A DNA stretch of 64,000 nucleotides from an uncultured Alphaproteobacteria bacterium (GTDB lineage: Bacteria; Pseudomonadota; Alphaproteobacteria; RF32; CAG-239). The stretch lies in contig CALXUE010000006.1 of assembly GCA_944391615.1 (NCBI GenBank), positions 17,665 through 81,664 on the forward strand. The letters are read 5' to 3'. The first letter of the stretch is position 1, and every line of letters starts with the position of its first letter. Position numbers and translations under genes: made by a program. The notes beneath the pieces are model-generated. The model was not told the DNA's origin, did no database searches, and worked only from the letters and a program-made list of their open reading frames with translations. Below are positions 17,189-61,360 of this stretch, one piece after another.

Positions 17189-17269
17189 TAGTAAAAATCC
17201 TCAAATAACACGTTAGATACTATTGTAAGCAAAAAAAGTTAAACAAAGGTTATTTTATAAAAGCGATAA

Positions 17270-42064: not shown

Positions 42065-44272
42065 TTATTCTTCATCCTCATCGGCATCGTCGCCGTTATC
42101 TTCTTCAGGATTATAGTCAATACCGAGTTTGGCTAACATATCTTCATTAATATCTTCACGTTGCGCCACAATCCAATCCGGCACGCAAGGCGCAGGCGGT
42201 AAAGCGGCCAAAGCTTTCATTTTCTTATCCAAATACCAACGTGGAGAATCAGCCATAATCGGCCTGTCAATGGAACCTTGCATCAACACCACTTGCTTAA
42301 GCATAGGCAAGCTTAAAAGTTGCGTAGTCGAAATAACTGACGTTCCCTGCAATTGGTAAGACACATTTTTAGAAAATGGATTCGTACCTTTACCCAATCC
42401 CTCTGTTTTTGAAAAAGATGTTGTCTGCACCGTCTTGTTACCAATCATTTTAGAGAAACGTTGCGCAGTCACCTCGTTGTTTTGAGAAAGAATAACTTTA
42501 CAAGCCGTGGTAGAAATCACGGTTTCCAAATCATCCTTACCATACTTTCCGGAAATTTGCCCCAAGTCTTGCCCGATAAGCAAATACGACACTTTTTGAC
42601 CACGACCGACGGCCGGTCCGTCAATAATAGCGCGAAGCTTAGGCATTTGCGGAAACTCATCCAGCACAAACAAAGCAGGGAACGGCCCCATCACGCCATC
42701 AGACTTGTTGTGGAATTTTGGCGGATTCGCAATCAAATAAGATGACATCAATTCAATAAACGTTCCCGAAATAATGTTCAATGCGCGCGCATCAACCTGG
42801 TTAACGGACAAATAAACCGAAATCGGCTTCCACTCACCAGTCACAGGGTCTTTCATTCCGCGCAAATCCTTAAATTGCAAATCAGAAAAACTCGTGCGCG
42901 AAACCACAGCCGCGTTTTTGAAAATACCAATACCGGCCAAACCGGTAGACAACACGGAACCACGCTCTTTATCCGGCATGGCGCTGAGCTGGCTGAGTTC
43001 AACAATACACCGTTGTGAGTAACCAAACTTTCTGGCTTCGGTAATGGCTTCTTCCAACATATTGCGCATCGGGTCAGCCATAGCGGCCATCTGGTCGCCC
43101 TCATCCAAGCGGCGCTTAATTTCTTCCGATTGTTTGATTTGAGCTTCGGTAATCCATTCCAAAATCATGGCCAAGCAGGCTTCATGCCCAATCCATTTCT
43201 CCGGCAACAAAGCCCATGAGCCAATGGGCAAATAGTTATCAATGGTGAGTCTGCCGGCTCTCAGATCTTGAATAGCTCTGGCCGCCATTGGATCACGCAT
43301 CTCAAGATAATAGCTTTCCAACACACGCTTATCTTCATCATCCATTTTACCTTCATAAATACGCCCGATAAAATAGTCATTAGCGCGTGCTTTTTCACAT
43401 TTAAAAGACACAAAGTGAATAAATCCTGTCAAAGCGGCACGACCTGTTGTTGACCAGTGCGGGTCTGCTCCCCCCTTAGGCTCTTCCACCAAAATATTGC
43501 ACATAGAGTCAATATACATATCTCGGTCAGGTCCCGGAGCAGGCAATGCATTAGGCGAAAGCGGGTTCCAACTCGGATAATAAATACCTTCAGCCGGATT
43601 GTCTTCCGCACCCCAGTTAATCACAAATACAGGGCCGTCTTTGGCACGAGCTCCGGTTGTGGAATAGCACAACTCAGGCTTTGGGTCGTTTACGATAATA
43701 CTCAGGCCGTGTGAGTTAAAAATAGTCGGAATCACCACGCCGGCAGTTTTACCGGTACCCGGAGGCGCACAGCAAAGAGTTGCCAGAGTTTCTTTAAGCA
43801 TAAGCATTTTGCCGTTAAACTTTCCGACCACTTGACAAAAGCCGTCAAAACCAAGCAACGGCATTTTTTTAATATCTTTTTCAGTGGCCAATCTTGCCGC
43901 ACCATGAATATTAGATTGAAAACGATAAGGATTTGTCAAAAAACCAATCGTCAATCCCACCGGAAAGCTTATAAACGGCAACACCGGCACCCACAAACTG
44001 ACCGAAAAAGGTCCGTTATAATGAGTCAGTTGTTGAAACCAACTCCAATAACGAGAAGTCAAATAAGAAGGGTCGTTAAAAACAGCCTGCAAAAAGCGAT
44101 AAGCAACATCCATGCTTGTTTTGGAAATTCCGGCCCCGATAAGATAACCGATAGGCAGCGAAAAAACAGCCAAAAAAATCGTCAACACCAAAGTGACAAT
44201 AGCGGAAATAACCATCCACTGCACCGCATTGTCATATTCTTCCCATTCTTCACCGCGTTCTTCAGACATCAA
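42065..44272 (-). CDS. Type IV secretion coupling protein (VirD4/TraG/DotL family ATPase)
   Basis: It has N-terminal transmembrane helices and the T4CP signature HGAARLATEKDI (GSARWA-like). Walker A is CCAPPGTGKTAGVVIPT and Walker B/DEF is LFVLDEFPQMPKL...IGQDLGQI. The C-terminal tail is acidic (DNGDDADEDEE). Confidence 0.8.
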   Translation of the reverse strand: MMSEERGEEWEEYDNAVQWMVISAIVTLVLTIFLAVFSLPIGYLIGAGISKTSMDVAYRFLQAVFNDPSYLTSRYWSWFQQLTHYNGPFSVSLWVPVLPFISFPVGLTIGFLTNPYRFQSNIHGAARLATEKDIKKMPLLGFDGFCQVVGKFNGKMLMLKETLATLCCAPPGTGKTAGVVIPTIFNSHGLSIIVNDPKPELCYSTTGARAKDGPVFVINWGAEDNPAEGIYYPSWNPLSPNALPAPGPDRDMYIDSMCNILVEEPKGGADPHWSTTGRAALTGFIHFVSFKCEKARANDYFIGRIYEGKMDDEDKRVLESYYLEMRDPMAARAIQDLRAGRLTIDNYLPIGSWALLPEKWIGHEACLAMILEWITEAQIKQSEEIKRRLDEGDQMAAMADPMRNMLEEAITEARKFGYSQRCIVELSQLSAMPDKERGSVLSTGLAGIGIFKNAAVVSRTSFSDLQFKDLRGMKDPVTGEWKPISVYLSVNQVDARALNIISGTFIELMSSYLIANPPKFHNKSDGVMGPFPALFVLDEFPQMPKLRAIIDGPAVGRGQKVSYLLIGQDLGQISGKYGKDDLETVISTTACKVILSQNNEVTAQRFSKMIGNKTVQTTSFSKTEGLGKGTNPFSKNVSYQLQGTSVISTTQLLSLPMLKQVVLMQGSIDRPIMADSPRWYLDKKMKALAALPPAPCVPDWIVAQREDINEDMLAKLGIDYNPEEDNGDDADEDEE

Positions 44273-44290
44273 TCAATCCTTTAAGCACTT

Positions 44291-45655
44291 TTAAGCAAGG
44301 TTACGTACAATTTTTTTAATTTTTTCAAAGTCCTCTCTGCCGATAGGTTCCACAGCATCCGGCAAAGTTTTAGCAAAGAGTTTAATTTCTTTAGGCGTGC
44401 CTCTATCAATACGTGTCACATTCACCTTCAAATCGTTCCACACATCAAACATATCTTCAGCATTAATGATATTACCGATAGAAACCACCACAAAGGCCCC
44501 AACATTAAACCTCATACCTTGTTCATCAAGGGTTTCTGAAAGAACCCTGCGAGCAATATCAACTTTTCGCACCGGAGAAATTCTGTGGCTGCTTTCCGAA
44601 AACCACAAAGGCTCTTCATCATTAAATCTTTCTTCATCAGCCAACCAGTCACCTGGCTCTTTGTCAATCAAGCACAAAACAAGTTGATTTTTAGCCACAC
44701 AAACAAAGTCAATCAAATTTCCCTTAAACATAACGCCGTTAATCGTTTCAAAACCGTGTTGTCTAATAATATCAAACACAGAACTTCCACTGCCTTTCAT
44801 AGCGGCTGACTGAGTACTTTTGGATGTTGCCGGCAAATTCTGATTATCACGGTTTTTATTGTTGCGAGGTCTGTTTTCTCTAGACTCTCGAGGAGAAATA
44901 TCGCGATTATTATCTTTTTTCTGGGGTAAATTTTTCTTAAAATTATTATCAGTCTTTCTCTCAACCGGAGCTTGAGGTTTTGTTTCTTCTTCAGACTTTG
45001 AAAAATCAAAGTCATCAATATTAAAGTCAAAATCATCATCTTTGCTGTCCATGTCAAACAAAGAATGACTAAATTGCTTTGTTTCCTGAGGCTTGTTTTC
45101 AACAACGGGAATACTTTTTTGTGCGGGTATAATGCTGGGCGTAACACTAGGTGTAACTGTTGCGGAAGAAGCAAGAGTTGAGCGATTCTTGGTTGCAATC
45201 AAGCTGGTCGCATTTTCAGGCTCGGGGCGTTCGTCAAGGGGTAAGCGCAAACTTCTGGGACGCACTTCTTTATAAGATTTTTTCTTTTTAATATTTTTCA
45301 TACCGGCAGAAGTCGTAATGATTTTAACCGGCCTAAAGAAAAATTGCTTAAATATCTTCCACGGATAGGAAGCCGCTTTTACAAACAATTTTTCCCATTT
45401 AACCATGCTAAGTGCAGCCCAACCGCACAACCATAAAGGAATAAAGGTTAAGATAATCAACACAAAGGCCCATTCTTTAGGTGTATTAATAACCCAACCG
45501 GAAAGCCACAAATTCCAAGCATGACTCCAGTGTGAGGATTGAAACATGTCAAAATGCCAGTTTCTGAGCATAATAACACGAACCCCTTCAATGAAGAATA
45601 AACTCCAGAAGAGGCCGACGCATAAAATTCGTGTTAAAATGACCAACGGTTTCAA
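44291..45655 (-). CDS. Hypothetical membrane protein upstream of the T4CP gene (Trp-rich N-terminal membrane module paralogous to 45716-46201)
   Basis: The N-terminal hydrophobic helices carry the IPLWLCGW motif, followed by a basic low-complexity linker and a C-terminal globular domain. It lies 18 bp upstream of the T4CP gene. Confidence 0.45.
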   Translation of the reverse strand: MKPLVILTRILCVGLFWSLFFIEGVRVIMLRNWHFDMFQSSHWSHAWNLWLSGWVINTPKEWAFVLIILTFIPLWLCGWAALSMVKWEKLFVKAASYPWKIFKQFFFRPVKIITTSAGMKNIKKKKSYKEVRPRSLRLPLDERPEPENATSLIATKNRSTLASSATVTPSVTPSIIPAQKSIPVVENKPQETKQFSHSLFDMDSKDDDFDFNIDDFDFSKSEEETKPQAPVERKTDNNFKKNLPQKKDNNRDISPRESRENRPRNNKNRDNQNLPATSKSTQSAAMKGSGSSVFDIIRQHGFETINGVMFKGNLIDFVCVAKNQLVLCLIDKEPGDWLADEERFNDEEPLWFSESSHRISPVRKVDIARRVLSETLDEQGMRFNVGAFVVVSIGNIINAEDMFDVWNDLKVNVTRIDRGTPKEIKLFAKTLPDAVEPIGREDFEKIKKIVRNLA

Positions 45656-45715
45656 AGCATCAAACCCTTAATTAAAATATGACATGTAAGATAGCACAAC
45701 AAAGTTAATAATAGA

Positions 45716-46201
45716 TTATTTTTTTGCATCAGAAATTTTCTGATTAACGGCATCGCGAATTTGTGCCGTAAGTTTGGAATTATCCAAATCTTTTTCAATT
45801 TTTTTCAGTTCATCTTTAATTTCATCTTCTGCAGATTCTGTTTTAACTGAAGTTCCCAAATTTTTCAAGACAATTCTCGCAGTATTTTGTTCATATTCGG
45901 CAATTTTTTGGGCCGAATACCAATCAAAAGGTTTGGCCAAAAGTGCCATAATTTTAATTTTGAGAGCTTTTCTCCATCCCCAAATCCAAATTGGCAAAAT
46001 TGCAATAAGGATAAGAACAAAAACATAATCGGCAAACGAGCGAATAACGCCGCCTTCATTCCAAAAGGTGCTCAAGAGTTGCCAGTCTTGAAGCCGAAAC
46101 AAGCTAAAATTCCAAATTCCTTGTAAAATAAAATCAAACACGGAAAATAACAAAACCGACCACACAACGCCGACAAAACAAAATTTAATAAATTTTTTCA
46201 T
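45716..46201 (-). CDS. Hypothetical small membrane protein (paralogous N-module; LPIWIWGW)
   Basis: The start is at MKKFIKF. It has the same W...W..G.VI...FVLI..I.P.W..GW pattern as 44291-45655 and a charged coiled-coil C-terminus. Confidence 0.45.
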   Translation of the reverse strand: MKKFIKFCFVGVVWSVLLFSVFDFILQGIWNFSLFRLQDWQLLSTFWNEGGVIRSFADYVFVLILIAILPIWIWGWRKALKIKIMALLAKPFDWYSAQKIAEYEQNTARIVLKNLGTSVKTESAEDEIKDELKKIEKDLDNSKLTAQIRDAVNQKISDAKK

Positions 46202-46226
46202 GAGCGCTCCCAACAGCAACAAAAAA

Positions 46227-47672
46227 TTATCTGCCGCCTTCATTCAGTCTGTTAAAGTTGTTTTGGGCAACAACCGACTGACGATGAGTCTGATGCTTTT
46301 GTACATAATCGTTAGATAAGCGTGATTTTAATTTGTTAAGTTTGACTCGTCTAACGTTATTTTGCGCACGCGCATTGTCATTTGCAAGTTGCTCCTGCAT
46401 ATAAACATCAAAGGCCTTTGTATTGGCTTTTTCTTGCTGAAGATCATTAAGCAAAGCCTCGTGCATGGATTGTTTGGATCTTGCGCTCATATCGGTTCCG
46501 TCGCGAATTTGCAACAGATTTTGAACATATTTGTTTTCTTTATATTGGCCTTTTGACTTGCGTCCCAGCCATTTCTTTTTGCTATAGCCGACAAAGTTTC
46601 CTTTAACAACATTTTTGCGCATAACATCCAAACCTTTGTCAACATTATCTTTGAGCATAGCACTGGTATTGTAGGCGCTTTTGCCGCTTTTAACCGCATT
46701 TTCAATACTGCGCGCAAACAGAAGATAACCCTCATTTTTAAACTTAGCCATGGCTTTGTCCATGTCTTTAATCTCAGTATCATCAGGATTGCGCATTTTT
46801 GCATCCATAAACATAAGCTGAGCATAGTTATTGGCAAACTGCGCTGCGGCCACACGATAAGAATTATAGGCTTCTTGGCATTTTGCAATATTGTTTGTAT
46901 CTAAAAATTGATTAAGCTTTTTGGGGTCAGCGTTTTGAAGACGAGCTTTTTGTTGAGGCGTTAATCCCTCATAATTTCCTTCACGAATTTTTTGTGCTTG
47001 CTCAATAAGACTTTTATCGTTGTCATACAGAGCTTCTTTAGCGTTAATATCTTCAACAGCCTTCTTTTCGGCATCGTTCATTTTTTTATAAGTGTCATAA
47101 GACTGCAAAGCTTTTTCTGCTGGTTTTTGAGCATCTTGCAAATGTTGCTTGTATTTTTTATCATAATATCCGGACTTAGTCTTTTTGCAACACCATTTCC
47201 AAATTCCGTTTAAGCCGGCGATAAGCCAGTCATTGTACATATAGTCAATAATGTCGCCGGCCTTGAAGATATTATCTTCTTTATCATCATAGTCTGCTCC
47301 GCCGATTTCATCTGGCTTACGTGTGATTGAACCTGTCTTCTTCTCTTCGGGAGTATTTTGTTCTTCGGGAACTTTGACCTGCTCGTTAACGGTTGTTTCT
47401 TTATTTTTTTCGTTAACGGTTGTTTCCTTAACAGCCTCGTTAACGGTTGTTTCCTTAACAGCCTCATTAACGGTTGTCTCTTTAACTTCTTCATTGACTT
47501 CAAGGGTTTCGTCATCGTTTTCATTTACATTGACAGTATCTTGATTTTGAGTTTCTTGAGGATTAGCGTCATTAACTTCCAGTGTGTCCTGATTCGCGTT
47601 ATCTTGCGTCTCATTTTCGCTTACTTCAAAGGTATCATTATCTTTTTTCTCGTCGACCATATGTTTCACCAT
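46227..47672 (-). CDS. Hypothetical protein with an acidic N-terminal repeat region ((V/A)KETTVNE x4) and a Lys-rich helical C-terminus
   Basis: The ORF holds 27-bp tandem DNA repeats at about 47385-47480, an N-terminus rich in E/N/T/D and a K/Q/N-rich C-terminus. No recognised family. Confidence 0.45.
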   Translation of the reverse strand: MVKHMVDEKKDNDTFEVSENETQDNANQDTLEVNDANPQETQNQDTVNVNENDDETLEVNEEVKETTVNEAVKETTVNEAVKETTVNEKNKETTVNEQVKVPEEQNTPEEKKTGSITRKPDEIGGADYDDKEDNIFKAGDIIDYMYNDWLIAGLNGIWKWCCKKTKSGYYDKKYKQHLQDAQKPAEKALQSYDTYKKMNDAEKKAVEDINAKEALYDNDKSLIEQAQKIREGNYEGLTPQQKARLQNADPKKLNQFLDTNNIAKCQEAYNSYRVAAAQFANNYAQLMFMDAKMRNPDDTEIKDMDKAMAKFKNEGYLLFARSIENAVKSGKSAYNTSAMLKDNVDKGLDVMRKNVVKGNFVGYSKKKWLGRKSKGQYKENKYVQNLLQIRDGTDMSARSKQSMHEALLNDLQQEKANTKAFDVYMQEQLANDNARAQNNVRRVKLNKLKSRLSNDYVQKHQTHRQSVVAQNNFNRLNEGGR

Positions 47673-47745
47673 ACATTCATTTGTTTAATCTAACTTGATA
47701 GTAACACAAAAAACAAATTTTGTCCATTATTTTTGTTGAATACAA

Positions 47746-48657
47746 TTAAGCTTTTAGCTTTTTCAAAAAAGCCCCGATAATACGGTTCATCCGAATACCG
47801 TCTTGAGGTTTAACCTTAATAAGCCCAAAGAAACGCGGCTTTATTTTATCCACTTGAATAGGGGCAAAAACAGCCGGATTGTTTGTCAAAACCTTATAAG
47901 CCCCGTCAGCATCCTTGCGAGCGGTTTTAAAATAGTTTTTCACCAGCCTGTCAGCATCAATCGGAAATTTCTTTTTATTGATAGCCTCGATATATTTGTT
48001 CATCAAATTAATACGGCGCTGATGCTGCAAATATATTTCGCGTTCCAAGCGCTTTTTTTCCCGCTTAAGCTTTCGTTCCTTATAAGCAATTTCGCGGCCT
48101 TCCATTTCAATCAACGATTCAACGTAGGAGATAATGGCAAATTGCAAAGTATCATCTTGAAGTTTTTCTGCAAAATCCAGAAGCTGCTCATCAGTAGATT
48201 GCAAAGAAATTTGCCCCACAATATCAGGATAAGCCTTAATCAAAATGTCCCAACCTTTTTCAAAATCTTCGGCAATAATTTTGCCTCTGCTGGGTTTATA
48301 ATGAGGCGTCAAATCCATCGGCTGTAATCTAAACTTACGAAAAGACAAATTCTTGTCCTTTGCAATCATGTTAAGAGCATCTTCAAAATTTCGATAAGCT
48401 TTGAACAGAGCTTTTTCAGACTTGTCAAGAGCATCTAATTCAGGGTCCTCTTCCTCAATGTCGCTGTTGTCTTGCGTAAAATTTGCGACCTGTATGTTTT
48501 CTTGAGGCACCTCGACATCGTGAACAACATCGGTCTTTTTTTGAGAAGAGAGCGTATCATCAATATCAACATCTTCCAGTTGGTTATTGATAAAGTCATT
48601 CAAGAGCTTTTCAAACTCACTGTCATCATTTTCAGCCATGAAGCAATTATCTCCCAA
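47746..48657 (-). CDS. Hypothetical acidic protein
   Basis: The N-terminus is very acidic (ENDDSEFEKLLNDF..DVDIDD) and no domain is recognised. It lies in the same minus-strand gene string. Confidence 0.4.
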   Translation of the reverse strand: MGDNCFMAENDDSEFEKLLNDFINNQLEDVDIDDTLSSQKKTDVVHDVEVPQENIQVANFTQDNSDIEEEDPELDALDKSEKALFKAYRNFEDALNMIAKDKNLSFRKFRLQPMDLTPHYKPSRGKIIAEDFEKGWDILIKAYPDIVGQISLQSTDEQLLDFAEKLQDDTLQFAIISYVESLIEMEGREIAYKERKLKREKKRLEREIYLQHQRRINLMNKYIEAINKKKFPIDADRLVKNYFKTARKDADGAYKVLTNNPAVFAPIQVDKIKPRFFGLIKVKPQDGIRMNRIIGAFLKKLKA

Positions 48658-50977: not shown

Positions 50978-51415
50978 CTAGATAATGTGTAAGGTTTTGA
51001 GAATAAACCAAATCAAAATAACCTGAAAGAAAAGCATCAGCCAAAACATAGCGCGAAAGCTTTTCTTTTTTGTTTTGTGATGAAATATTTTTTGCGCCAG
51101 AAAAGCCCCACACCATCCACCAAGCAACTCCAGCATATGCAAGTCAATTTCCGGCACACGCCACTCGCCGGCAATAGCAGCTTTTTTATCTCTCCAATAA
51201 GCAATTATGGTAACAAAATTAATAGATATAAGATGAAACACTAAAAATAACAAAATCGTTTTGTAAGCAAAAATCGGCGCTCTGAAAAAATGATGTTCAA
51301 CATAATAAGCCGCTAAAATAACAAGAGCGGCATGCAAAACATAAAATCTGTTCTTTTGCAACGGACGGAACAAAGCCATCATAGCAATCAAAATAGCAGA
51401 AAATGTAACAACCAT
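50978..51415 (-). CDS. DUF1294-like membrane protein
   Basis: It has three transmembrane helices and a C-terminal WRVPE..LH.LELLGGWCGAFLAQKIFHHKT pattern. Confidence 0.45.
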   Translation of the reverse strand: MVVTFSAILIAMMALFRPLQKNRFYVLHAALVILAAYYVEHHFFRAPIFAYKTILLFLVFHLISINFVTIIAYWRDKKAAIAGEWRVPEIDLHMLELLGGWCGAFLAQKIFHHKTKKKSFRAMFWLMLFFQVILIWFILKTLHII

Positions 51416-51497
51416 TTTTTATATCCTCTAACAAACTTTTGCCAAACATAACATAATTATAAAAAAAATCAATGAGTGAATAACTTGTAAAAAGCAG

Positions 51498-52745
51498 ATG
51501 AGAAAAAAAAGAAAACCGATTATAATGCAAATTATGAAAAATAGAAGTTATGACATACTGTTTGCAGCCTTATCCATCTTATTGCTTAGTGTCCAAACCG
51601 CGACAGCAGAAGATGGAAGCACCATCATACAAGGCTCATCCTGCGAGCAGATAAAACAAGACGAAAGCAAGTCAACGGCCCGTGCACGCGCAACGGATAA
51701 AGCATCATTCAAAGCCATCAGTGATATGGCATCCTTGTCTCGCTATAAAAACGAGATGGATTCTCATGATTTTAATGTCTTGGTTTATCAAATTGTAGAT
51801 AATTATATTGAGGATTTATCAACCAAAACCACCGAGCAAACAACCGATAAAATTTGCGTTGCGGTGTCAGGGTATGTCAGCCAAAATAATGTTCAACAGG
51901 CGGTGGATGAGTTTTTTTCGGCACAGTCGCAACCGGCACAAGCGAATAATATCTCAGCAGAAGAAACCTCTGCAATGTCTGAAGCAATTACCAAAGAGCT
52001 AGCGCAGGCACAACAAAATTTGCAGCAAAAACAGCAAGAAGAATTAAAACAAAAAGAGGTTGTTTTTGCCGGAGATACCTCAGATGCAGCATTAAATACA
52101 GAGAGTTCTTTGCAGAATGATGAGCAACCTCTAGCGACCAATCTTCCCCATGATATGGCGCAAAATATGACCGAGGCTTTAACCGCGCCAACCTATCAGG
52201 ATGCCACAGCCGCACCAAAAGCGCAACAAGCTGAAGATGCTCAGACCCCGTCCAAGGATAGTGTTCTGGTTTATGTTGACCCCTTGAGCTTTTATGATAA
52301 TAGTACGTCGGAAGCCTATGCCGATATCATAAAAGACTACCTTAAGCAAGATTCGCGTATATTAATAACCGAGAATAAAAATCTGGCAGAATATATCTTA
52401 ACCCCAAAAGTTTTGCGCGCCAAAGTAGAGGCGGTGAATCATGAAACCAATCGTCTGCAAATGGTCGTTTCACTCGATATGTATGATGTTTCTGCCGAGA
52501 AAAATTTGACCGAACACCGCAACAGATTTATAGTCTATAAAACTTCGGCAGATGAGCAACAAGTAGCTTATGAGTTGATGCAAAATTTATTTGATGATAC
52601 AAGCCGTCAAATGTTGAATATAATCAACAATAATCAACAAAAACGCGCCACTGAAAATTGGGGCAAAGATGTTCTGCCTTCCATCATAACACCGGCAAAA
52701 GAATATTCTCCAAAGGCTTATGTTGAGCCTTTGCCGACACGTTAA
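51498..52745 (+). CDS. Hypothetical secreted Gln/Ala-rich protein
   Basis: It has a signal peptide (LSVQTATA/ED), a low-complexity Q/A-rich middle and no recognised domain. Confidence 0.4.
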   Translation: MRKKRKPIIMQIMKNRSYDILFAALSILLLSVQTATAEDGSTIIQGSSCEQIKQDESKSTARARATDKASFKAISDMASLSRYKNEMDSHDFNVLVYQIVDNYIEDLSTKTTEQTTDKICVAVSGYVSQNNVQQAVDEFFSAQSQPAQANNISAEETSAMSEAITKELAQAQQNLQQKQQEELKQKEVVFAGDTSDAALNTESSLQNDEQPLATNLPHDMAQNMTEALTAPTYQDATAAPKAQQAEDAQTPSKDSVLVYVDPLSFYDNSTSEAYADIIKDYLKQDSRILITENKNLAEYILTPKVLRAKVEAVNHETNRLQMVVSLDMYDVSAEKNLTEHRNRFIVYKTSADEQQVAYELMQNLFDDTSRQMLNIINNNQQKRATENWGKDVLPSIITPAKEYSPKAYVEPLPTR

Positions 52746-53487
52746 TATAGAGATTATCATAATTAATCAAATCGTTTTTCACACAATACTCATCAAAGTC
52801 GGCATTAATTGCGTCCTGCAAAGTTGAGGCGTTAGCGTTTACAAATAAAAGGATGTTTACCACACAATAGCTTTTGCGCATATCTAAAGATACTTCAAAA
52901 TCAAGCAGGTTATGTGCGCATTTGGCAAAGATTATTTGTTGAAAAGCGGCAAAGGCTTTCCAGTACTTTTGCGCGTCATAAAAAGCAACAAAATTCTGCA
53001 CTGCCTCAAACACATCTTGACTGGCGTGCGCCGCCACAAGTAAAAGCAAATCTCGCCTTCCGTGCGCAAAAGCAAAATTAATCAAAGGCGCAAAAAATTT
53101 TTCATTCAAGGAGGAGATATCATCGAGCACAGGATTAAAAATTTCTTGAGCCATATCTTTTAAGTTAAGAACAGATAAAATATGTCCGTAAAGCAACCGA
53201 AAAGGCAGGCTGAGCTCACCACCGTTTTCCCAAATTTTATAAGCAAAAGCAAGGGCTCTTTCAACTTTACCCAATAATAGCTGAACTTCAGCCATTAAAA
53301 TAAGATATTCCGCTTTATTGTCAAATTGCTGCAAACAAACATATAAGTCAGATTCAACCTTTTGAGCGGAAGACAAATCATCCCACTTAAGCGACAAAAT
53401 GCGATTTAACATCACCTGAGCATCTAAGGGAGAAAGTGGAGTTTGATAAACAATATTATGATTTGTGTTTTCAAAATCATCAACCAT
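52684..53487 (-). CDS. Hypothetical protein
   Basis: The probable start is at MVDDFEN, which gives a short overlap with the dtd stop. No domain is recognised. Confidence 0.35.
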   Translation of the reverse strand: MVDDFENTNHNIVYQTPLSPLDAQVMLNRILSLKWDDLSSAQKVESDLYVCLQQFDNKAEYLILMAEVQLLLGKVERALAFAYKIWENGGELSLPFRLLYGHILSVLNLKDMAQEIFNPVLDDISSLNEKFFAPLINFAFAHGRRDLLLLVAAHASQDVFEAVQNFVAFYDAQKYWKAFAAFQQIIFAKCAHNLLDFEVSLDMRKSYCVVNILLFVNANASTLQDAINADFDEYCVKNDLINYDNLYINVSAKAQHKPLENILLPVL

Positions 53488-53935
53488 TTTGCCCACTCTT
53501 TCTTTCCAAAATAAAAGTGCACGGCCCGTCATTAATAAGCTTAACTTTCATATCAGTTTGAAAAACACCGGTCTGAACGGGAATGTTAAAAGACTTAAGT
53601 TTATCAATCATGTAAAGATAAAGGGCGTCAGCCTCCTCAGGTTTGGCAGCAGTTTCAAACCCCGGCCGATTCCCGCGAGAAGTATCACCGGCTAAAGTAA
53701 ATTGAGAAACAATCAAAAGCTCAGCTTTAACATCTAAAATAGACAGGTTCATTTTGCCGTTTTCATCTTCAAAGATTCGTAAATTGGCAATTTTTTTAGC
53801 CAAAAAGTCAGCTTCAGCTTGAGTATCACCTTTTTCAACCCCGAGGAATACCAAAAAACCTTTCCCGATTTGAGAATAAACACTTTCGTTAATCGTAACT
53901 GCCGCTTCCAACACTCTTTGTACCAAAGCCTTCAT
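53480..53935 (-). CDS. dtd: D-aminoacyl-tRNA deacylase
   Basis: MKALVQRV...SVYSQIGKGFLVFLGVEKGDT...SQFTLAGDTSRGNRPGF is the canonical Dtd sequence with the SQFTL motif. Confidence 0.85.
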   Translation of the reverse strand: MKALVQRVLEAAVTINESVYSQIGKGFLVFLGVEKGDTQAEADFLAKKIANLRIFEDENGKMNLSILDVKAELLIVSQFTLAGDTSRGNRPGFETAAKPEEADALYLYMIDKLKSFNIPVQTGVFQTDMKVKLINDGPCTFILERKSGQNG

Positions 53936-54043
53936 GGTTGTATCCCTCCCTCGAACATAGGATAATCAGTAAAAACAAATTTTTCAATAAAATATCATAC
54001 TTAAAAAATAATTAATCAAATATATATATAAACTACAATACAA

Positions 54044-55060
54044 TTGAAGAAAAATAAAGGAACGCCGATGACAACCAAAAAAAGCAAGGTAACGGAATCA
54101 TTTTTGGTCGACATTCATGAAGACCAAACCTCAACCATAACCAAAAGCAGCAAACCGATAGCCTATAATAAGACAGACAAATATTTTTGGAGGCATATGG
54201 ATTATAAAAATCCGGAAGCACAAAAAATTTTGATGAAACATTATGATATCTCAGAGGATGTTGCTGCCGCCTTGTGTGACATCAGTACCCGTCCGCGTTG
54301 TTTCCACCACAAAAATGGCATAGTGATGATATTGCGAGGTATTAATTATGACCAAAGCGCAGATCCTGAAGATATGGTCTCTTTAAGAGTATGGGTCGAA
54401 AAAAATAAAATCATAACTTTATCGCATAATGCGCTAAAAGCCGTAGATGATATGTTGGAACAAATAACCGAAAAAGAGCCGCCCGTCAGTCCGATGCAAC
54501 TGTTTTTAAGATTGGCACAAAATATGTCTGACGGCATCAATAATGAAATCATAAATATAATGGATGAAACCGCGGATATGGAGGAAAAAGTATTAGACAC
54601 GGATTCGTTGAGTGATTTTGGCTTAAGAAATAAAATAAGCGATATGCGCAGAAACATAATCACCATCCGCCGCTATACCGCTCCGCAAAGAGAAATATTT
54701 TTGAGTCTCCAAAATGATAAATGGGAAACCTTAACCGATGAAGACCGAGAAGATATAAGAGAAATTTATAACGACATAACCAAAGCTGTAGAAGATTTGG
54801 ACTATTGCCGAGAGCAAATGAGTATTTATAATGAAGAACTTGAAGGCAAAGTCAGTATCAGTATGACCCGCATAATGTATCTTATCTCTTTGGTGACGGT
54901 TATATTTACCCCCTTAACATTACTGACCGGCTTGCTAGGTATAAATGTTCAGGGCATACCCTATGCCGACAGTCCTTATGCCTTTGCCATAGTTTGCGCT
55001 ATTTTAACGATTATGTGCGCCGTTTTGGTTGTTATGATGAAACGCTTAAAATGGCTGTAG
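54044..55060 (+). CDS. CorA/ZntB-family divalent cation transporter (GIN variant of the GMN motif)
   Basis: It has a cytoplasmic N-domain and two C-terminal transmembrane helices with the loop LLGINVQGIPY. The start may be at 54068. Confidence 0.6.
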   Translation: MKKNKGTPMTTKKSKVTESFLVDIHEDQTSTITKSSKPIAYNKTDKYFWRHMDYKNPEAQKILMKHYDISEDVAAALCDISTRPRCFHHKNGIVMILRGINYDQSADPEDMVSLRVWVEKNKIITLSHNALKAVDDMLEQITEKEPPVSPMQLFLRLAQNMSDGINNEIINIMDETADMEEKVLDTDSLSDFGLRNKISDMRRNIITIRRYTAPQREIFLSLQNDKWETLTDEDREDIREIYNDITKAVEDLDYCREQMSIYNEELEGKVSISMTRIMYLISLVTVIFTPLTLLTGLLGINVQGIPYADSPYAFAIVCAILTIMCAVLVVMMKRLKWL

Positions 55061-55066
55061 AAAATA

Positions 55067-56293
55067 TTAATAAAATAAATAAGCCATAAAAATAGCCACG
55101 ATGATTCCCGCCAAATCAGCTAAAAGAGCACAAGGCAAAGCCGCCCCGGTTTGAGAAATTTTCACGGCCCCGAAATAAAGAGCCAAAACATAAAATGTTG
55201 TTTCGGTAGAGCCTTGAACAATACAAGAAACAAAGGCCGGAAAAGAATCAGCCCCAAAGTTTTGCATTGTCTCAATCATCATGGCGCGGGCCCCGCTGCC
55301 AGACAGAGGCTTCATTAAAGCAGTCGGCAAAGCGGCAACAAAATCCGTGTCACATCCCACAAAGGCAAAACATTTTTCCAACCCCAAAATCAAAAAATCC
55401 AAAGCACCGGATGCCCTTAAAACGGCAATAGCCGTCAACATGGCCACCAAATAAGGAATAATTTTAACGGCGACCGAAAAACCTTCTTTTGCCCCAAGAA
55501 TAAAAGTATCATAAACATTAAGCTTTTTTCTGAGACCGAGGATAATAAATCCCACAATAATGGCAATCAAAACAAAATTGCTAAAAGCCGAAGAAATAAT
55601 CAGTCTCTTATCTACCGGCAAACCATAAAATCCTAAAGCCAAGGCAAGAATAAGTCCGATAAATATTAATAAATAGCTTAATACCACTTTATTAAAAATA
55701 TTAAGCTTTTGAGAAAAAGCAACGGCCAAAAAACCAACCAAAGTCGAAGCAAAAGTCGCAATCAAAATCGGCACAAACACCGCGCTGGGGTTAAGAGACC
55801 CAAGCTCCATGCGATACATCAAAATCGTAATCGGAATAAGCGTCACTGCCGAAGCATTCAAAACAATAAACATAATCTGGGCTGAAGACGCGCTGTCTTT
55901 ATGCGGATTAATATCTTGGAGCTGTTCCATAGCTTTAAGCCCCATAGGCGTTGCAGCGTTATCCAACCCCAGCATATTAGCCGCCATATTCATGATTATG
56001 GACCCAAAAGCGGGAGAATTTTGCGGCACATCCGGAAAAATTTTAGCAAACAAGGGACGCAAGAGTTTGGCGAGCCCATCAGTAGCACCGGATAATTCAG
56101 CAATTTTTAAAATCCCCAGCCAAAAACACAACAAACCAGTCAAATTAATAGAAATAGAAAAACCCAGTTTAGCCGCATCAAACAAACTTTTGCCCAATTC
56201 ATTCCAAATCAAAAAATCGGCAAAACAAACCGATTTAATTCCGGCACAAACAAAAGCAACAATAAAAAATCCGGCCCAAATCCAATTTAACAT
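55067..56293 (-). CDS. Nucleoside-recognition (Gate) domain membrane protein, SpmA/SpmB-like
   Basis: It has a polytopic membrane topology with duplicated gate-like halves. It is co-directional with, and abuts, the upstream membrane-protein genes. Confidence 0.5.
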   Translation of the reverse strand: MLNWIWAGFFIVAFVCAGIKSVCFADFLIWNELGKSLFDAAKLGFSISINLTGLLCFWLGILKIAELSGATDGLAKLLRPLFAKIFPDVPQNSPAFGSIIMNMAANMLGLDNAATPMGLKAMEQLQDINPHKDSASSAQIMFIVLNASAVTLIPITILMYRMELGSLNPSAVFVPILIATFASTLVGFLAVAFSQKLNIFNKVVLSYLLIFIGLILALALGFYGLPVDKRLIISSAFSNFVLIAIIVGFIILGLRKKLNVYDTFILGAKEGFSVAVKIIPYLVAMLTAIAVLRASGALDFLILGLEKCFAFVGCDTDFVAALPTALMKPLSGSGARAMMIETMQNFGADSFPAFVSCIVQGSTETTFYVLALYFGAVKISQTGAALPCALLADLAGIIVAIFMAYLFY

Positions 56294-57444
56294 TAATAGC
56301 TCATAATTTGTTGAAAAGAAGCATTTGGTTTAAGCAAAATCGTCTCAGCCATTTCATCAAAAAGCGCGCAAGCCTCAGCAGTAGAAATAAGCTTAGACAT
56401 ATCATTATTCCATCTCACATTTTGCGGTTCAGTATTTTGGTTAACGGCAACAAGCTCAATAATAGCCTGCCGGCGAATATTTTCAATATCCACGGCAATA
56501 CTGTCCTCAAGCTTACGCCCTAAGCGAGATTTTGCTTGGTTATAAAAAGTTTGTGTTGTCTCACCATATTGGCTCAAATCTTTTTCAATTTTAGCAAGAT
56601 GCGTAGCAAACTTAGAGCGAAACACTTCAGGATAAATCACGAGATTATACCCTTGTTTGTGGCAATAATCTTGATACCCGTACAAATGTCTGGCGGCAGT
56701 ACCGGCAGCAAGAGAGAGTTTTTGATTCTGAGAAACGGTCGGAATTTCAGAAACGTTATTGCCTTCAGCCGGATGAGAAAAACCATATTTTACAAGCCCT
56801 CCCAATAAAACCAACAAGAGCAAAAGACAAGCCACAACCATATCTTTGTGCAGGCTATAAGCTTTTTTTCTGAGTTGGAAAGACTTTTCGAGATTAACGC
56901 GCACCATTTCAGCGTTAAAAGCCAAGAACCAAATGATTGATGCGACAATTAAACCGCATAAAAAGAGCAAAGCGCTCCATCCGTCATAAAACACATCAAC
57001 AAGAGTCAATAAGGCGAATATAGCGCAAGCCACAACATAAGCTGCCCGATATCCGCGAAAAACAAACCACATTAAAACAAGCGTAAGAGCAACCACCCAT
57101 GCAGCGGATAAAGAAGATTTCCAAACAAAACCAATGCCCAAAACAGCAATTGCCACAAGGCTTAAGAGACGAAATTTATAAAACAAATTAGAATCAAGCA
57201 CCTTTTTCCGATACACGGCGGAAGAGTTCAAAAAGCGAGCAATTTTTTTCACAAACCAATTGGCACAAAAGGAGCAATAAAAAGCCAAAAACCTTTTATA
57301 AAAAGAGTTTATGAACTGAGCAAAGGGCTTTGATTTAAGGGTCAAAAAATCCACAAAAGAATCAATTTTTCGCCACATGGAATATACCTTCAAAAAACAA
57401 CAAAAGCTAAAGATAGTAATATCAAAAAGGTAAAACCAAGTCAA
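56293..57444 (-). CDS. Hypothetical polytopic membrane protein
   Basis: It has multiple hydrophobic helices and no recognised domain. It is the third gene of the minus-strand string 60034 to 55067. Confidence 0.4.
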   Translation of the reverse strand: MTWFYLFDITIFSFCCFLKVYSMWRKIDSFVDFLTLKSKPFAQFINSFYKRFLAFYCSFCANWFVKKIARFLNSSAVYRKKVLDSNLFYKFRLLSLVAIAVLGIGFVWKSSLSAAWVVALTLVLMWFVFRGYRAAYVVACAIFALLTLVDVFYDGWSALLFLCGLIVASIIWFLAFNAEMVRVNLEKSFQLRKKAYSLHKDMVVACLLLLLVLLGGLVKYGFSHPAEGNNVSEIPTVSQNQKLSLAAGTAARHLYGYQDYCHKQGYNLVIYPEVFRSKFATHLAKIEKDLSQYGETTQTFYNQAKSRLGRKLEDSIAVDIENIRRQAIIELVAVNQNTEPQNVRWNNDMSKLISTAEACALFDEMAETILLKPNASFQQIMSY

Positions 57445-57467
57445 TTGAGATAAAAAGTTAATGACAG

Positions 57468-57977
57468 TTATTTGCTCGTGTTATCACTTAGCTCGAGAGA
57501 GGAGCCAGCGATATCATCGCCCCATTCTTCACGTAATTTGTTAAGTTTGGCATCAATTCTTTCGATACGTTTCTGAGCCGAAATTTTATAAAAATAAGCA
57601 TAGAGATTAGGGAGTTCGGAATACACCAAAACGCCAATAGCGGCACATCCGAGCATAACAATCAGCATAAAGATGTTATCGGCAATATTGTTAGTTAAGC
57701 CAAGAGAAAATTTAGAAAGTAAGCCGAAGAGATAAAAGAACACCCCCGAAATATTAAAACAGCCGATAATCAGTTGCTTATCATAATTTTGCCGATCGGT
57801 ATACATAATAGTAATGGTAGGCAGCAAGCCGAAGATGAGCAACAACACAATCGGAAAAGAAATAAAAATCAAGAAGATAAGCAAAGCAAAAAGCAAAAAT
57901 TTCTGCAAAAAGGATAAGTTTTTGTAAGCTTTAGCAAATTGAGGACCTTTATTAATTTTAGAATTTTTCTGATTCAT
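57468..57977 (-). CDS. Hypothetical membrane protein
   Basis: The start is at MNQKNSK and overlaps the upstream stop (ATGA-type coupling). It has four hydrophobic segments. Confidence 0.4.
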   Translation of the reverse strand: MNQKNSKINKGPQFAKAYKNLSFLQKFLLFALLIFLIFISFPIVLLLIFGLLPTITIMYTDRQNYDKQLIIGCFNISGVFFYLFGLLSKFSLGLTNNIADNIFMLIVMLGCAAIGVLVYSELPNLYAYFYKISAQKRIERIDAKLNKLREEWGDDIAGSSLELSDNTSK

Positions 57978-60034
57978 TATTGTAACACCCATTTAATAAG
58001 GTTATAAGCAAAAGAGACAATCATGGCCAACACCGCAAAAATAGTAGCTAATTTAAGAGCGGCAGCTTTAGCAGATTCTTCAAGTTTAGCAGAGTTTCCG
58101 GAAATTTTGCTTTTTTCCAAATTAAGCAAATTAAATTCATTTAAGACGGAGGCAAAACCATTGCGATCTTTTTCCAAAGTCTGTTCATTTTCTAATAGAT
58201 TGTAAATTTCATAAATTTTACCGGCCGGATAAGTTTTAAGCAACTCTTTTTCCAAATATCGCTGATATTTTTTGTTATGATAAATTTGGATCATCGGTTT
58301 TGCAAAATTAGCCAACCAGTGAGCAAGATTAACGAGCTTAGTCGGTCCGAACTTAGTCTGCATCATAGCATAGAGTTGCAAGATAGAGCTAGCTTTAACT
58401 TCATTACGATTGGAGTTTAAGCCCGAAATAAATTCATCAATTTTTTTGCCCATTTTGCAACGCAAAAAGGCAACAATCATGCGGTCATAAGGCTGAGCCA
58501 TAATATTAGTTTGGTCAAATGCGGCATCCAAAGCTTTTAAGACCTGAGGAGCACTAGAAACAAATTCTTTTTCGAACAAAGGACTAATGCAAGGAATATC
58601 TGCATCCAAGTCATAAATAATGCGTTCGATTCCATAGCCGATTTCTTGGCGCATAATATACACCCTAAATTCCGTAAAGTTCGAAGGCGTTCGCAAATAC
58701 TCCTGATCTTGATACCAAAGCTTAATCAAGTCGGAAGAAAAAATTTCAATAAATTCTTTAATAGATTTTTTAGCCTTAACGGCGCTAAACACGGCTTTAG
58801 CAACACCATCGGGAAAGAAAGTTATATTTTTGTATCGAATAGGAAACAGCTTATCAATCAAGATAGAAATTCTGGCGATGGTGAGGTCCTTGTTTCCGGC
58901 AGAAGCTTGTTCTTGTTTAACGATAGATTCGATTTGCGCGGTTAGTTTTTCGTTTTCGAGACCGTTTTTAGCCCAATCGGCAATTTTCCCCTGCATAATA
59001 AGGCTATAAGCTTCATCGGGGTAGAGTTGCATGGTATAAACCACATCATGAGGCATATACACTTTTTCACCGTTAATATTAAGGGCGCGTTTGGGGCGTT
59101 CTAGGGAAGCAGGCGAGTTAAGGTTGACCTGTTTTCCATCAAAAACGTTTGCCACTTGAGTATGCCCCCAACGAAAAGAAGGCACATCTTGCAGCAAGCC
59201 TCTAAAGACGGTAGAAAACTCGGTAGGAATTTTTTCAAGAGCATTAAAAAAAGAAAAACTTCCTTTTTTAATTTTTTGGCGCAAGATTTCAGGTCCCGAC
59301 AAATTAATAGCCAAATCATGACCGAGGAAGAGACACAAGGCCGTAACGGCGGCAGAATACACGTCATTTTTATCATTTCCGTTACCTCTGGCATCTTTGT
59401 CGGCATAAATACTTTCAATAGTTTCAAAAACAGGGGGCTGATGAAACGCCGGAAAAGAGGCAGCACAGTCTCCGAGGATAATTTCACTTTTGTTTTCATC
59501 ACTAAAATAGAGATTATCGGTACGGATGGCACGATGTGTGATATGCATACTTTTCATCACATCAATAAGTTCCAAGATATTGAGCAAAGTTTGCTTAAAT
59601 TTATCATAATTATTTTTGAAGTTGATGGTACACACGCCGTTTTCAAAAACCTTACCGCCCAAAGGCATAGCATAAATCAAAGCCATTTTGTGCGTTTTAT
59701 CTTGAGGAAAGAAGATAGTGCCAAAATCGAGCAGTTTCATAAGAGCAGGATGTTCAATAGACTTCAGATAAGGCAAAACAGAAAGTCTGGGACAAGTATC
59801 ATTAGAGCAAATCAGAGCAAAAAGTTTGCGAGCGGAATCAATTCTGTCAGAGACACCAAAAGCGATAGCATTATTATTATTGAGGTGAGGCAAAGGTTTA
59901 GAAAAATCAATTTCATATCTTTCTTTAAACAACACTTTAGTGTCGGATTTTTTTTCCGTATCCGTAGCGGCGGCCTTACTTTCAACTTCTGTTGCAGTGT
60001 CGGGCACATTCAAATCAATATTTTCGTCCGTCAT
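57977..60034 (-). CDS. Protein-kinase-fold protein with degenerate catalytic motifs (probable pseudokinase or atypical kinase) plus a long C-terminal helical region
   Basis: KERYEI (kinase N-lobe-like), HITHRAIRTDNLYF (in the HRDLKPxN position, with the Asp replaced by Ala), ILGDCA (in the DFG position) and DVYSAAVTALCLFLG (subdomain IX-like) are present. Confidence 0.5.
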   Translation of the reverse strand: MTDENIDLNVPDTATEVESKAAATDTEKKSDTKVLFKERYEIDFSKPLPHLNNNNAIAFGVSDRIDSARKLFALICSNDTCPRLSVLPYLKSIEHPALMKLLDFGTIFFPQDKTHKMALIYAMPLGGKVFENGVCTINFKNNYDKFKQTLLNILELIDVMKSMHITHRAIRTDNLYFSDENKSEIILGDCAASFPAFHQPPVFETIESIYADKDARGNGNDKNDVYSAAVTALCLFLGHDLAINLSGPEILRQKIKKGSFSFFNALEKIPTEFSTVFRGLLQDVPSFRWGHTQVANVFDGKQVNLNSPASLERPKRALNINGEKVYMPHDVVYTMQLYPDEAYSLIMQGKIADWAKNGLENEKLTAQIESIVKQEQASAGNKDLTIARISILIDKLFPIRYKNITFFPDGVAKAVFSAVKAKKSIKEFIEIFSSDLIKLWYQDQEYLRTPSNFTEFRVYIMRQEIGYGIERIIYDLDADIPCISPLFEKEFVSSAPQVLKALDAAFDQTNIMAQPYDRMIVAFLRCKMGKKIDEFISGLNSNRNEVKASSILQLYAMMQTKFGPTKLVNLAHWLANFAKPMIQIYHNKKYQRYLEKELLKTYPAGKIYEIYNLLENEQTLEKDRNGFASVLNEFNLLNLEKSKISGNSAKLEESAKAAALKLATIFAVLAMIVSFAYNLIKWVLQ

Positions 60035-60157: not shown

Positions 60158-61360
60158 ATGACAGAGGCAGAGAAGATGACAAAATCAAAACATGCCATAC
60201 CCACATCACTAGAAGATCTGGAAGAAATATCCCAGCACCCCACACCGATTAAGGCAGATTTATCGGTTTTGGAGCACGCGCAAAATTATCACATATCGCT
60301 GGATGGGCTGGAGAGTATTTCAACCCCAAGCGCAGACTTGAGTGTGCAGCAGCCAAAATCAAAGCCTGCCGTATCACCCAAGGCCGTAAAAGCAGATATG
60401 CCCGATCAACAAGAGCAGACAAGCCCCATGGCCGCTTCATCCAATTCCAAAGAGGCGTTAACCCCCAATATCACGGGGCACCTAAATTTGGAGCGCGTTG
60501 ATTTACCGTTAAGAGAAGTGATTCGCAAAATATTTTGGCGCTCGTCGCGCCCGATTGTTGTTATCAGCGATGACAAAATCGTTTATGTCAATCCGTCATT
60601 TTTAGAGTTAGTGGGCAAAGAAACGGAATATGACGTACTGGAAAAAAATTTTTTTGAGTTTGTCTCGCCCGAATATTGGGACAAGCTTTCAACCGGCATA
60701 GGCGATGTTTTAACCAAGAATCAAGCCATACAAATAGGCATAAAGGGCAAACTCGGCAAAGTAATCCGCCTCAATTTTGAAGGTATATATATAACGGATG
60801 AGCACACATTCAGCTTTATATTAATAGGAATGTTGGCCGAAAAGAAGAGCTATGCGGCCGGATTATATAATGAAAAGACAGGGCTTCCGAGCTATGAGTT
60901 GCTGCAAGACCGCATCAAGATGTCTATTGATGCCCGCAGCATAGACAGGTTAAGTTTGGGTCAAAACATCAGTGCACTTGCCTGCATACACATAGAGGCG
61001 GCAGATTTTATGGATGATTTCAAATCCATGTCCATTTTGAAGCGCATATTTGAGCGTCTTCTAAGCAGTCTCAACAAGCATTATACCTTAGCGCACGGGG
61101 AAGATGACAAGGAGTTTTGGATATATATACCAACCATAAGCACTATGGAAAAATTATCAACCGAAATGCAGTATATTAAAGACTTGTTTGAAACGCCGGT
61201 TGAAGAAAATTACAGTCCCACCCGATTCAAAAGCTACATGGGGGTGAGTACTTATCCCGAGCCGGCAACATCAGCCAAAAAGCTGGTGGAAGAAGCCAAG
61301 CTGGCTAATCAAAAAGCCCTTCAAAACGATGACGGAAAGATTGTATATTTCGGAGCTTAA
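60158..61360 (+). CDS. PAS-domain-containing protein with a degenerate GGDEF-like C-terminus (signalling protein)
   Basis: It has a PAS-like block (IVVISDDKIVYVNPSFLELVGKETEYDVLEKNFFEFVSP). The C-terminus has no intact GGDEF or EAL motif. Confidence 0.4.
   Translation: MTEAEKMTKSKHAIPTSLEDLEEISQHPTPIKADLSVLEHAQNYHISLDGLESISTPSADLSVQQPKSKPAVSPKAVKADMPDQQEQTSPMAASSNSKEALTPNITGHLNLERVDLPLREVIRKIFWRSSRPIVVISDDKIVYVNPSFLELVGKETEYDVLEKNFFEFVSPEYWDKLSTGIGDVLTKNQAIQIGIKGKLGKVIRLNFEGIYITDEHTFSFILIGMLAEKKSYAAGLYNEKTGLPSYELLQDRIKMSIDARSIDRLSLGQNISALACIHIEAADFMDDFKSMSILKRIFERLLSSLNKHYTLAHGEDDKEFWIYIPTISTMEKLSTEMQYIKDLFETPVEENYSPTRFKSYMGVSTYPEPATSAKKLVEEAKLANQKALQNDDGKIVYFGA

Follow-up and report, generated by a model that had tools for sequence, protein, structure and literature searches.

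Few bacterial pseudokinases have been described, and those that have are almost unstudied. A 2025 review (PMC12599244) and a bioRxiv atlas distinguish seven families, named ActPs1-3, GLW, CP1, DYD and DLHK, and two further cases, EssB/YukC and the pseudokinase domain of MviN, illustrate that membrane pseudokinases can serve as scaffolds or regulators (PMC12599244). Here we analysed a stretch of 64,000 nucleotides (nt) from an uncultured Alphaproteobacteria bacterium (GenBank assembly GCA_944391615.1, contig CALXUE010000006.1, positions 17,665 to 81,664 of the forward strand), hereafter the window, which contains a gene for a 685-amino-acid (aa) protein with a kinase fold. We favour, with moderate confidence, the view that this protein is a non-catalytic pseudokinase tethered to the membrane, and that it acts as a scaffold or signalling module together with a small membrane partner. 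The family to which it belongs is a large and old one, with about 1000 clusters at 50% identity, and it is strictly paired with the gene of this partner. The parts of the gene are located as follows.

57977 to 60034, minus strand: tail-anchored pseudokinase gene, 685 aa (open reading frame list, relatives, AlphaFold2 model)
59135 to 59938, minus strand: pseudokinase domain, residues ~33-300 (Foldseek against PDB, HMMER and hhalign alignments, column counts with n = 442)
58097 to 59101, minus strand: conserved, mostly helical C-terminal domain, residues ~312-646 (separate AlphaFold2 model, conservation)
57986 to 58072, minus strand: C-terminal transmembrane anchor, residues ~655-683 (hydropathy 2.19 over 19 residues)

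An initial annotation, made from the letters of the sequence, had recognized kinase landmarks in four short strings, and all four are found in the translation of the open reading frame (ORF): KERYEI at residues 37-42, HITHRAIRTDNLYF at residues 164-177, ILGDCA at residues 186-191 and DVYSAAVTALCLFLG at residues 224-238. It had also proposed a kinase fold and named structure prediction as the way to check it. The AlphaFold2 (AF2) model of the protein, built with 35 homologues, has the two-lobed kinase fold, and its confidence is not low: the mean predicted local distance difference test score (pLDDT) is 85.6 and the predicted template modelling score (pTM) is 0.79, with disorder limited to residues 1-29 and 306-311. 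When this model was compared with the PDB by Foldseek, the top matches were all Ser/Thr kinases (WNK3, Rad53, CDPK1, CaMKI and GCN2), with a target template modelling (TM) score of up to 0.74, reached for PDB entries consisting of the kinase domain only. Sequence comparisons point in the same direction. A phmmer search against PDB sequences retrieved MSK1 and CDPK kinases (E 2e-7), a profile of distant members of the family retrieved kinases with an E-value of 1.5e-12, and hhalign aligned residues 92-290 with PknB of M. tuberculosis at 96.8% probability, the PknB sequence having been entered by hand. The match to the Pfam Pkinase profile (PF00069), in which residues 89-295 correspond to profile positions 51-258, remains below the gathering score (19.5 bits versus 31.7), and precomputed PF00069 matches exist for some relatives. 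The kinase likeness of the 685-aa protein exceeds chance.

The residues on which catalysis by a canonical kinase depends are a different matter. In HMMER and hhalign alignments the segment H167-R168-A169-I-R171-T-D173-N174 maps onto the H-R-D-L-K-P-E-N of the catalytic loop, and A169 aligns with the HRD Asp, just as the initial annotation had read it. The same annotation had given G-D-C as the counterpart of DFG; the motif is indeed degenerate, but this register was one residue off, and in two HMMER alignments it is D189-C190-A191 that maps onto D-F-G. The Phe has thus been replaced by Cys and the Gly by Ala, and the metal-binding Asp, D189, is retained. The N-lobe is not alignable by sequence to any kinase. 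Its beta3 strand, residues 71-75 of the model, reads L-F-A-L-I, in which, anchored on the near-invariant Ala73, F-A-L-I takes the place of VAIK and the Lys is replaced by Ile. The position of the Gly-rich loop reads PLPHLNNNNA, which is longer and contains no Gly, and the position of the alphaC Glu is V86 by HMMER alignment and hydrophobic across the family. The C-lobe core, on the other hand, is retained (E204/E207, D224 and R288). The state of the key columns among 442 full-length relatives aligned to the family hidden Markov model is as follows.

Position 169, HRD Asp: Ala in 310, Ser in 80, Gly in 20, Asn in 17; Asp in none of 442
Position 75, beta3 Lys: Ile in 220, Val in 169, Leu in 35 of 442
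Position 174, catalytic-loop Asn: Asn in 441/442
Position 189, DFG Asp: Asp in 343, Glu in 89 of 442 (acidic in 432/442)
Position 83, alphaC Arg: Arg in 434/442
Position 167, HRD His: His in 427/442
Position 204, Glu of the APE region: Glu in 429/442
Position 224, alphaF Asp: Asp in 441/442
Position 288, subdomain XI Arg: Arg in 436/442

Because the HRD Asp is absent from all 442 full-length relatives, these columns indicate an old pseudokinase family, devoid of the catalytic base and the ATP-anchoring residues from its origin onwards, and not a recent decay. The structural core of the kinase fold, judging from the same columns, is strongly constrained. The free exchange of Asp and Glu at position 189 would be explained more readily by a structural role, such as a salt bridge that may involve R83, than by Mg2+ chemistry. 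The reading of the initial annotation, "pseudokinase or atypical kinase", is supported: a kinase fold is present, and four elements (Gly-rich loop, beta3 Lys, alphaC Glu, HRD Asp) are missing both here and family-wide. We also considered a covarying redox or metal pair formed by Cys76 and Cys190 in the former ATP pocket and discarded it: the joint count of 87 equals the ~86 expected if the two positions were independent.

The kinase fold is followed by a domain that is specific for the family. Besides its helices, this domain includes two short beta-hairpins, and the long helices that come after it lead into the C-terminal transmembrane helix. Modelled alone by AF2, it has a pLDDT of 84.5. Foldseek did not match it to the PDB (best E 0.46, TM-score <0.22), and nothing was found in BFVD, a library of viral models; its sequence profile gave 0 matches against the PDB, and no Pfam or NCBIfam domain was detected in it. 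This is a domain of ~350 aa that has no structural match in either of the two libraries searched. It is also where the most invariant residues of the family are all located: G468, Y474, S484 and D517 are present in 442/442 sequences, D623 in 441/442 and C482 in 439/442. At the start of the domain (58595-59101, minus strand; residues ~312-480) there is a pair of units that resemble each other: in both, a beta-hairpin precedes several helices and one Trp is conserved (W354 and W440, respectively). These units suggest an internal duplication of the domain, which we rejected, as the hhalign comparison gave a probability of 2.4% and an E-value of 0.019, which is not significant. Similarly, we rejected a Cys482-His519-Asp517 triad: His519 is present in 134/151 sequences of the wide family but it is Met here, and the position is variable in the protein's own clade. 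The wider family reads D-R-H around this position (58478-58480, minus strand), D517 being invariant, and the Met or other residue found in the protein and its clade is a clade-specific loss beside the invariant Asp.

The protein ends in a membrane anchor. The AF2 model shows a helix over residues 648-684, the polypeptide ends 2 residues past the anchor, and 437/441 relatives likewise end in a hydrophobic tail. The N-terminus, which is acidic and disordered, has no signal peptide. These features suggest the topology of a tail-anchored protein, the bulk of which would reside in the cytoplasm.

The second element of the proposed module is the gene that follows. The genes surrounding the pseudokinase gene in the window are as follows.

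57468 to 57977, minus strand: partner gene, 169-aa membrane protein (hydropathy, synteny; no Pfam match)
56293 to 57444, minus strand: 383-aa polytopic membrane protein with a TTG start (no family match; clade-specific)
55067 to 56293, minus strand: 408-aa Gate-domain (nucleoside-recognition, SpmA/B-like) membrane protein (PF07670, E 8.6e-21, in two stretches)
60158 to 61360, plus strand: protein with PAS and degenerate GGDEF domains (PAS matches; divergently transcribed)

Hydropathy analysis predicts one C-terminal helix for the 685-aa protein and three helices for the partner; for the 383-aa protein it predicts ~4-5, and for the 408-aa protein many. The partner has, in addition to its three predicted hydrophobic helices, a C-terminal amphipathic helix and an invariant WG end. 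The four genes of the minus strand are co-directional, with the coupled starts and stops that the initial annotation had described. The stop codon of the pseudokinase gene overlaps the next start (TAATG), or by 16 nt if the upstream ATG counts: the ORF list extends the partner to this ATG at 57992 (174 aa), and the ATG at 57977 is the likelier start. A gap of 23 nt separates the partner gene from the 383-aa ORF, which in turn overlaps the Gate gene by 1 nt (TAATG). A scan for promoter-like and terminator-like sites (12 versus 13.4 in shuffled sequences, and 9 versus 5.7 with a standard deviation of 2.5, respectively) marked no site as an obvious operon boundary.

We inspected the loci of 13 independent relatives (L001-L004 and L007-L015), whose pseudokinases are 27-63% identical to that of the window. 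The partner gene is located directly downstream of the pseudokinase gene in 13/13 loci, often with overlapping stop and start codons, and the partner is homologous even in the loci with 27-29% identity (hmmsearch E 1e-22 to 1e-26, and alignment). An independent search with the partner as query came back to these contigs and to this pair of genes. In the clades of metagenome-assembled genomes (MAGs; 45-63% identity), a methyltransferase gene and a divergent PAS/degenerate-GGDEF gene lie upstream, followed by the pseudokinase gene and that of a membrane protein of 160-171 aa. In three of these loci (L004, L009 and L010) the pair is directly followed by rpoH and rluD in convergent orientation, and beyond these by a DUF6476 gene, four unknown genes and the gene of a type IV coupling protein (T4CP); in L007 three additional genes intervene before rpoH, and L008 is rearranged past the small protein. 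The distant loci (27-29% identity) have the order hisZ, purA, pseudokinase, a small protein of 154-215 aa, rpoH and rluD, with rpoH missing in L011; they contain no GGDEF gene.

The initial annotation had placed the kinase-like gene at the head of an operon of membrane proteins comprising two polytopic proteins and a Gate-domain transporter. This is true for the window, and the Gate domain is borne out by the Pfam match, although the Gate gene falls outside the interval 56293-60034 that had been assigned to the operon. Only the first, small membrane protein, however, is a conserved partner. We rejected the four-gene operon as a functional unit, as tblastn against the 13 loci showed that the genes of the 383-aa protein, Gate protein, CorA and Dtd and three further genes are a clade-specific insertion. 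This block of seven genes (50978-57444: DUF1294, two unknown proteins of 415 and 282 aa, Dtd, CorA, Gate and the 383-aa protein) lies between the pair and rpoH and was seen in no loci other than those of the window's clade (L001-L003), and it is only in these three loci that the Gate gene is adjacent. The 383-aa protein evolves much faster than its neighbours: in L001-L003, the only loci where it was found, it is 33-34% identical, versus 61-63% for the pseudokinase and 72% for the Gate protein (tblastn). The conserved unit consists of two genes, not four. On the other side of the pair, the PAS/GGDEF neighbour is present in L001-L010, that is, in the MAG clades only, and purA occupies its place in the distant loci. 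Where the GGDEF signature would be expected, this protein has AHGEDDKEF and its relatives have ARGLKxQF, which makes it probable that it is not a diguanylate cyclase.

The family itself is widespread. A close search returned more than 276 relatives of ~680 aa from MAGs of uncultured Alphaproteobacteria, all of them unnamed or annotated as "hypothetical protein". When 1.84 billion cluster representatives were searched with a profile, 3176 matched at E<1e-3, 999 of them at E<1e-30 (clusters at 50% identity); among the 150 matches listed nearly all are full length, ~660-790 aa, the exceptions being a few truncated fragments. A search with distant members extended the family to Caenispirillum salinarum AK4 (C882_3748), Phaeovibrio sulfidiphilus (annotated as "protein kinase family protein") and Magnetovibrio, as well as to Rhodospirillaceae, Magnetospirillaceae and Rhodospirillales MAGs. 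For C. salinarum and P. sulfidiphilus, both of them cultured species, the taxonomy was checked; the family includes free-living Rhodospirillales such as these. The protein of the window has the complete signature of this family: a length within ~660-790 aa, H-[RG]-[ASGN]-I-R-x-x-N, G-[DE]-C, the invariant Y474, C482, S484 and D517, a C-terminal transmembrane helix, and the gene of a small membrane protein directly downstream. The pseudokinase gene is a core chromosomal gene of a large family of Rhodospirillales-type bacteria. Our literature search found no paper on this family. As some members are cultured, a genetic approach may be feasible.

Taken together, these data suggest the following model. 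A Hanks-type pseudokinase would be tethered by its C-terminal helix to the cytoplasmic face of the cell's own inner membrane, with the family-specific, mostly helical domain separating the kinase fold from the anchor. It would be translated together with its three-helix partner, and the two proteins may form a membrane complex. Like the folds of other pseudokinases, the dead kinase fold would serve as a rigid platform for binding or allostery. The functional surface may be the polar cluster of invariant residues in the helical domain (Y474, C482, S484 and D517), and the pair would act as a scaffold or signal relay.

The main alternative to this model concerns the lack of catalysis. It is possible that the protein is an atypical active enzyme, in which a rearranged active site composed of N174, D/E189, R171 and the alphaC R83 performs a non-canonical phosphotransfer or another nucleotide-dependent reaction; N174 and D/E189 would then still serve in binding a metal-nucleotide. 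On the one hand, several observations favour such an enzyme and weigh against a non-catalytic role. N174 (441/442) and an acidic residue at position 189 (432/442) are almost universally kept, for which reason we give this possibility some weight, even though we consider it rather unlikely; R171 (422/442) and H167 (427/442) are kept as well. The scaffold pseudokinases EssB and MviN/ActPs3, by comparison, have lost these motifs (PMC12599244), and SelO, which also has no HRD Asp, reads HGVMNTDN (PMC12599244) where the family described here reads H[RG]AIRxDN. On the other hand, the Gly-rich loop and the alphaC Glu are absent, and there is neither a beta3 Lys nor an alternative conserved Lys: a WNK-like Lys at position 57 is found in only 47/151 sequences. 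Moreover, Asp and Glu are interchangeable at position 189, the Asp of "TDN", D173, is present in only 258/442 sequences, the N-lobe cannot be aligned with that of any kinase, and no SelO-family match was obtained in Pfam or NCBIfam. We therefore prefer to regard the protein as a non-catalytic pseudokinase.

A more specific proposal concerns the gene that lies beyond the pair. In most loci rpoH is located tail-to-tail right after the pair, across 27-50% protein identity, and it is conceivable that the pair is a hitherto unrecognized sensor of membrane stress or proteostasis in Rhodospirillales-type Alphaproteobacteria, with the heat-shock sigma factor RpoH as its target and the Tyr/Cys/Ser/Asp cluster as the sensing or binding site. 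If true, this would constitute a new kind of sigma-32 control and also a new fold. However, the link with RpoH is weak because rpoH is convergent and because the adjacency of rpoH and rluD is common in other Alphaproteobacteria too, and we consider this proposal improbable.

Still less probable is the interpretation raised as a possibility in the initial annotation, that the protein is a translocated effector, as eukaryotic-like kinases typically are in intracellular bacteria, and is connected with a nearby T4CP gene. According to this interpretation, a eukaryotic-like kinase or pseudokinase would be delivered to host cells through a type IV secretion system (T4SS) that employs this coupling protein. 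It is true that a T4CP gene is located at ~14 kb (42065-44272; PF02534, E 9e-57), that several related MAGs keep the T4CP cluster close to the pseudokinase locus, and that the PDB entries most similar in sequence are CAMK-type kinases of eukaryotes. Nevertheless, several observations speak against it. Firstly, an effector kinase would be expected to be soluble and to have a distribution that depends on a T4SS and a host-associated lifestyle, whereas the C-terminus of this protein is a membrane helix, not a secretion tail, in 437/441 relatives. Secondly, the gene pair is kept in the order hisZ-purA-pseudokinase-partner-rpoH-rluD in free-living Rhodospirillales that have no T4CP within flanks of 6-8 kb, and the MAG locus L008 also has no T4CP cluster within its 8-kb flanks; the distribution is order-wide, syntenic and confined to a single locus. 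Thirdly, rpoH, rluD and seven other genes lie between the pseudokinase gene and the T4CP gene in the window, and no other T4SS component turned up among the window genes scanned. Fourthly, the GC content of the pseudokinase gene matches that of its surroundings, and the segment "ARG...DVYS.G" has, by alignment, its counterpart in bacterial PknB, an indication of descent from a bacterial Ser/Thr kinase. Finally, the chromosomal context is an ordinary one, including Ffh, RimM, TrmD, Asd, MurD, class II aldolase, MotAB, GcrA, SecA, AspRS and RNase D. We thus consider an effector very improbable, and what reads as a "eukaryotic-like kinase near a T4CP" appears in this case to be a resident membrane protein. 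The window looks like part of the ordinary chromosome of a motile alphaproteobacterium and shows no sign of an intracellular lifestyle.

Some further features of the window should be mentioned. The MotB, MotA and GcrA genes (15696-17833, minus strand) suggest that the alphaproteobacterium is flagellated and has the usual cell-cycle regulator, and is not a reduced intracellular one. The T4CP (735 aa; PF02534, TraG-D_C and TrwB) is encoded within 42065-48657 (minus strand), among housekeeping genes; its neighbours are four unknown proteins of 454, 175, 481 and 303 aa with no Pfam match, and a small DUF6476-like ORF (48661-~48950, minus strand). In related MAGs the T4CP is 71-79% identical, versus 24-58% for its neighbours and 45-46% for the pseudokinase; it looks strongly constrained, and it is apparently an orphan coupling protein. 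A 271-aa protein (33982-34797, minus strand) contains an Lcl C-terminal domain (PF07603, E 6.7e-9, just over the cut-off), named after the Legionella collagen-like adhesin.

The least probable of the alternatives, that the protein is the kinase component of a MADS or Mokosh-like anti-phage defence system, can be practically dismissed: the matches that suggest it are weak (NCBIfam MAD6, E 2.6e-4; PADLOC MkoA, E 1e-7, and PD-T4-6), the MAD6 match reaches 19.6 bits against a cut-off of 460 and covers the generic kinase core only, that to MkoA spans 268 of 1112 profile positions, neither cognate genes nor any other defence gene is adjacent, and the locus is single and syntenic in the core chromosome across the whole order, unlike defence islands.

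How, then, does this membrane-tethered pseudokinase compare with the kinases and pseudokinases that have been described? With the PknB-like bacterial Ser/Thr kinases (bSTKs; PF00069) it shares the two-lobed fold and the C-lobe core. The features in common with PknB identified by hhalign are the His, Arg and Asn of the catalytic loop, the APE-like Glu, the segment "ARG...D-V-Y-S-x-G", the alphaF Asp and the subdomain XI Arg. The near-invariant alphaC Arg recalls the "RF" arginine of bSTKs (bioRxiv 10.1101/2025.01.12.632604), with a register that is uncertain by one residue. It differs from these kinases in that the Gly-rich loop, beta3 Lys, alphaC Glu and HRD Asp are all missing and the DFG motif reads [D/E]-C-x, and it has a helical domain of ~350 aa and a tail anchor in addition. 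Measured against an active Hanks-type kinase, it possesses the fold, the catalytic-loop Asn and the DFG Asp, and it lacks a score at the Pfam gathering level, the Gly-rich loop, the beta3 Lys and the HRD Asp. SelO and SidJ, which catalyse AMPylation and glutamylation, respectively, likewise combine a kinase fold that has no canonical HRD Asp with a retained Asn and acidic DFG residue. Both of these enzymes, however, have demonstrated activities and keep the beta3 Lys (WHLK and VAVK; PMC12599244), which is Ile or Val here.

The seven pseudokinase families mentioned above share with the one described here that they are conserved in bacteria and have a degraded catalytic triad (PMC12599244). The ActPs families are actinobacterial, CP1 is cytosolic and associated with COG3899, and DLHK, which is linked to helicases, has not lost the HRD Asp (PMC12599244). 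GLW, which is proteobacterial and has a C-terminal transmembrane helix, reads "GLW" instead of HRD, has a poly-Leu/Trp beta3 strand and has no DFG Asp (PMC12599244, bioRxiv atlas), and the family described here reads H-R-A...N, F-A-L-[IV] and [D/E]-C instead. None of the seven, as they have been described, has these motifs, the helical domain or the partner gene. By motif and architecture, the protein is also distinct from the MviN pseudokinase and from the EssB/YukC family, and no YukC/EssB-family Pfam match was detected in it. EssB/YukC, a component of the type VIIb secretion system (T7SS), spans the membrane once; its N-terminal domain is a cytoplasmic pseudokinase devoid of all catalytic motifs, and it acts as the structural and regulatory hub of a membrane machine (PMC12599244). 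EssB differs in that it has a large extracellular C-terminal domain, is encoded in a T7SS gene cluster and occurs in Firmicutes, whereas in the protein described here nothing follows the transmembrane helix, the large helical domain would be cytoplasmic, and the catalytic-loop Asn and the acidic DFG position are kept. Its conserved neighbourhood (purA or GGDEF, partner, rpoH and rluD) contains no secretion genes. The tail-anchored protein of the window represents an undescribed variant among the bacterial pseudokinases, and, as far as an analogy can indicate its function, the best one would be that with EssB/YukC.

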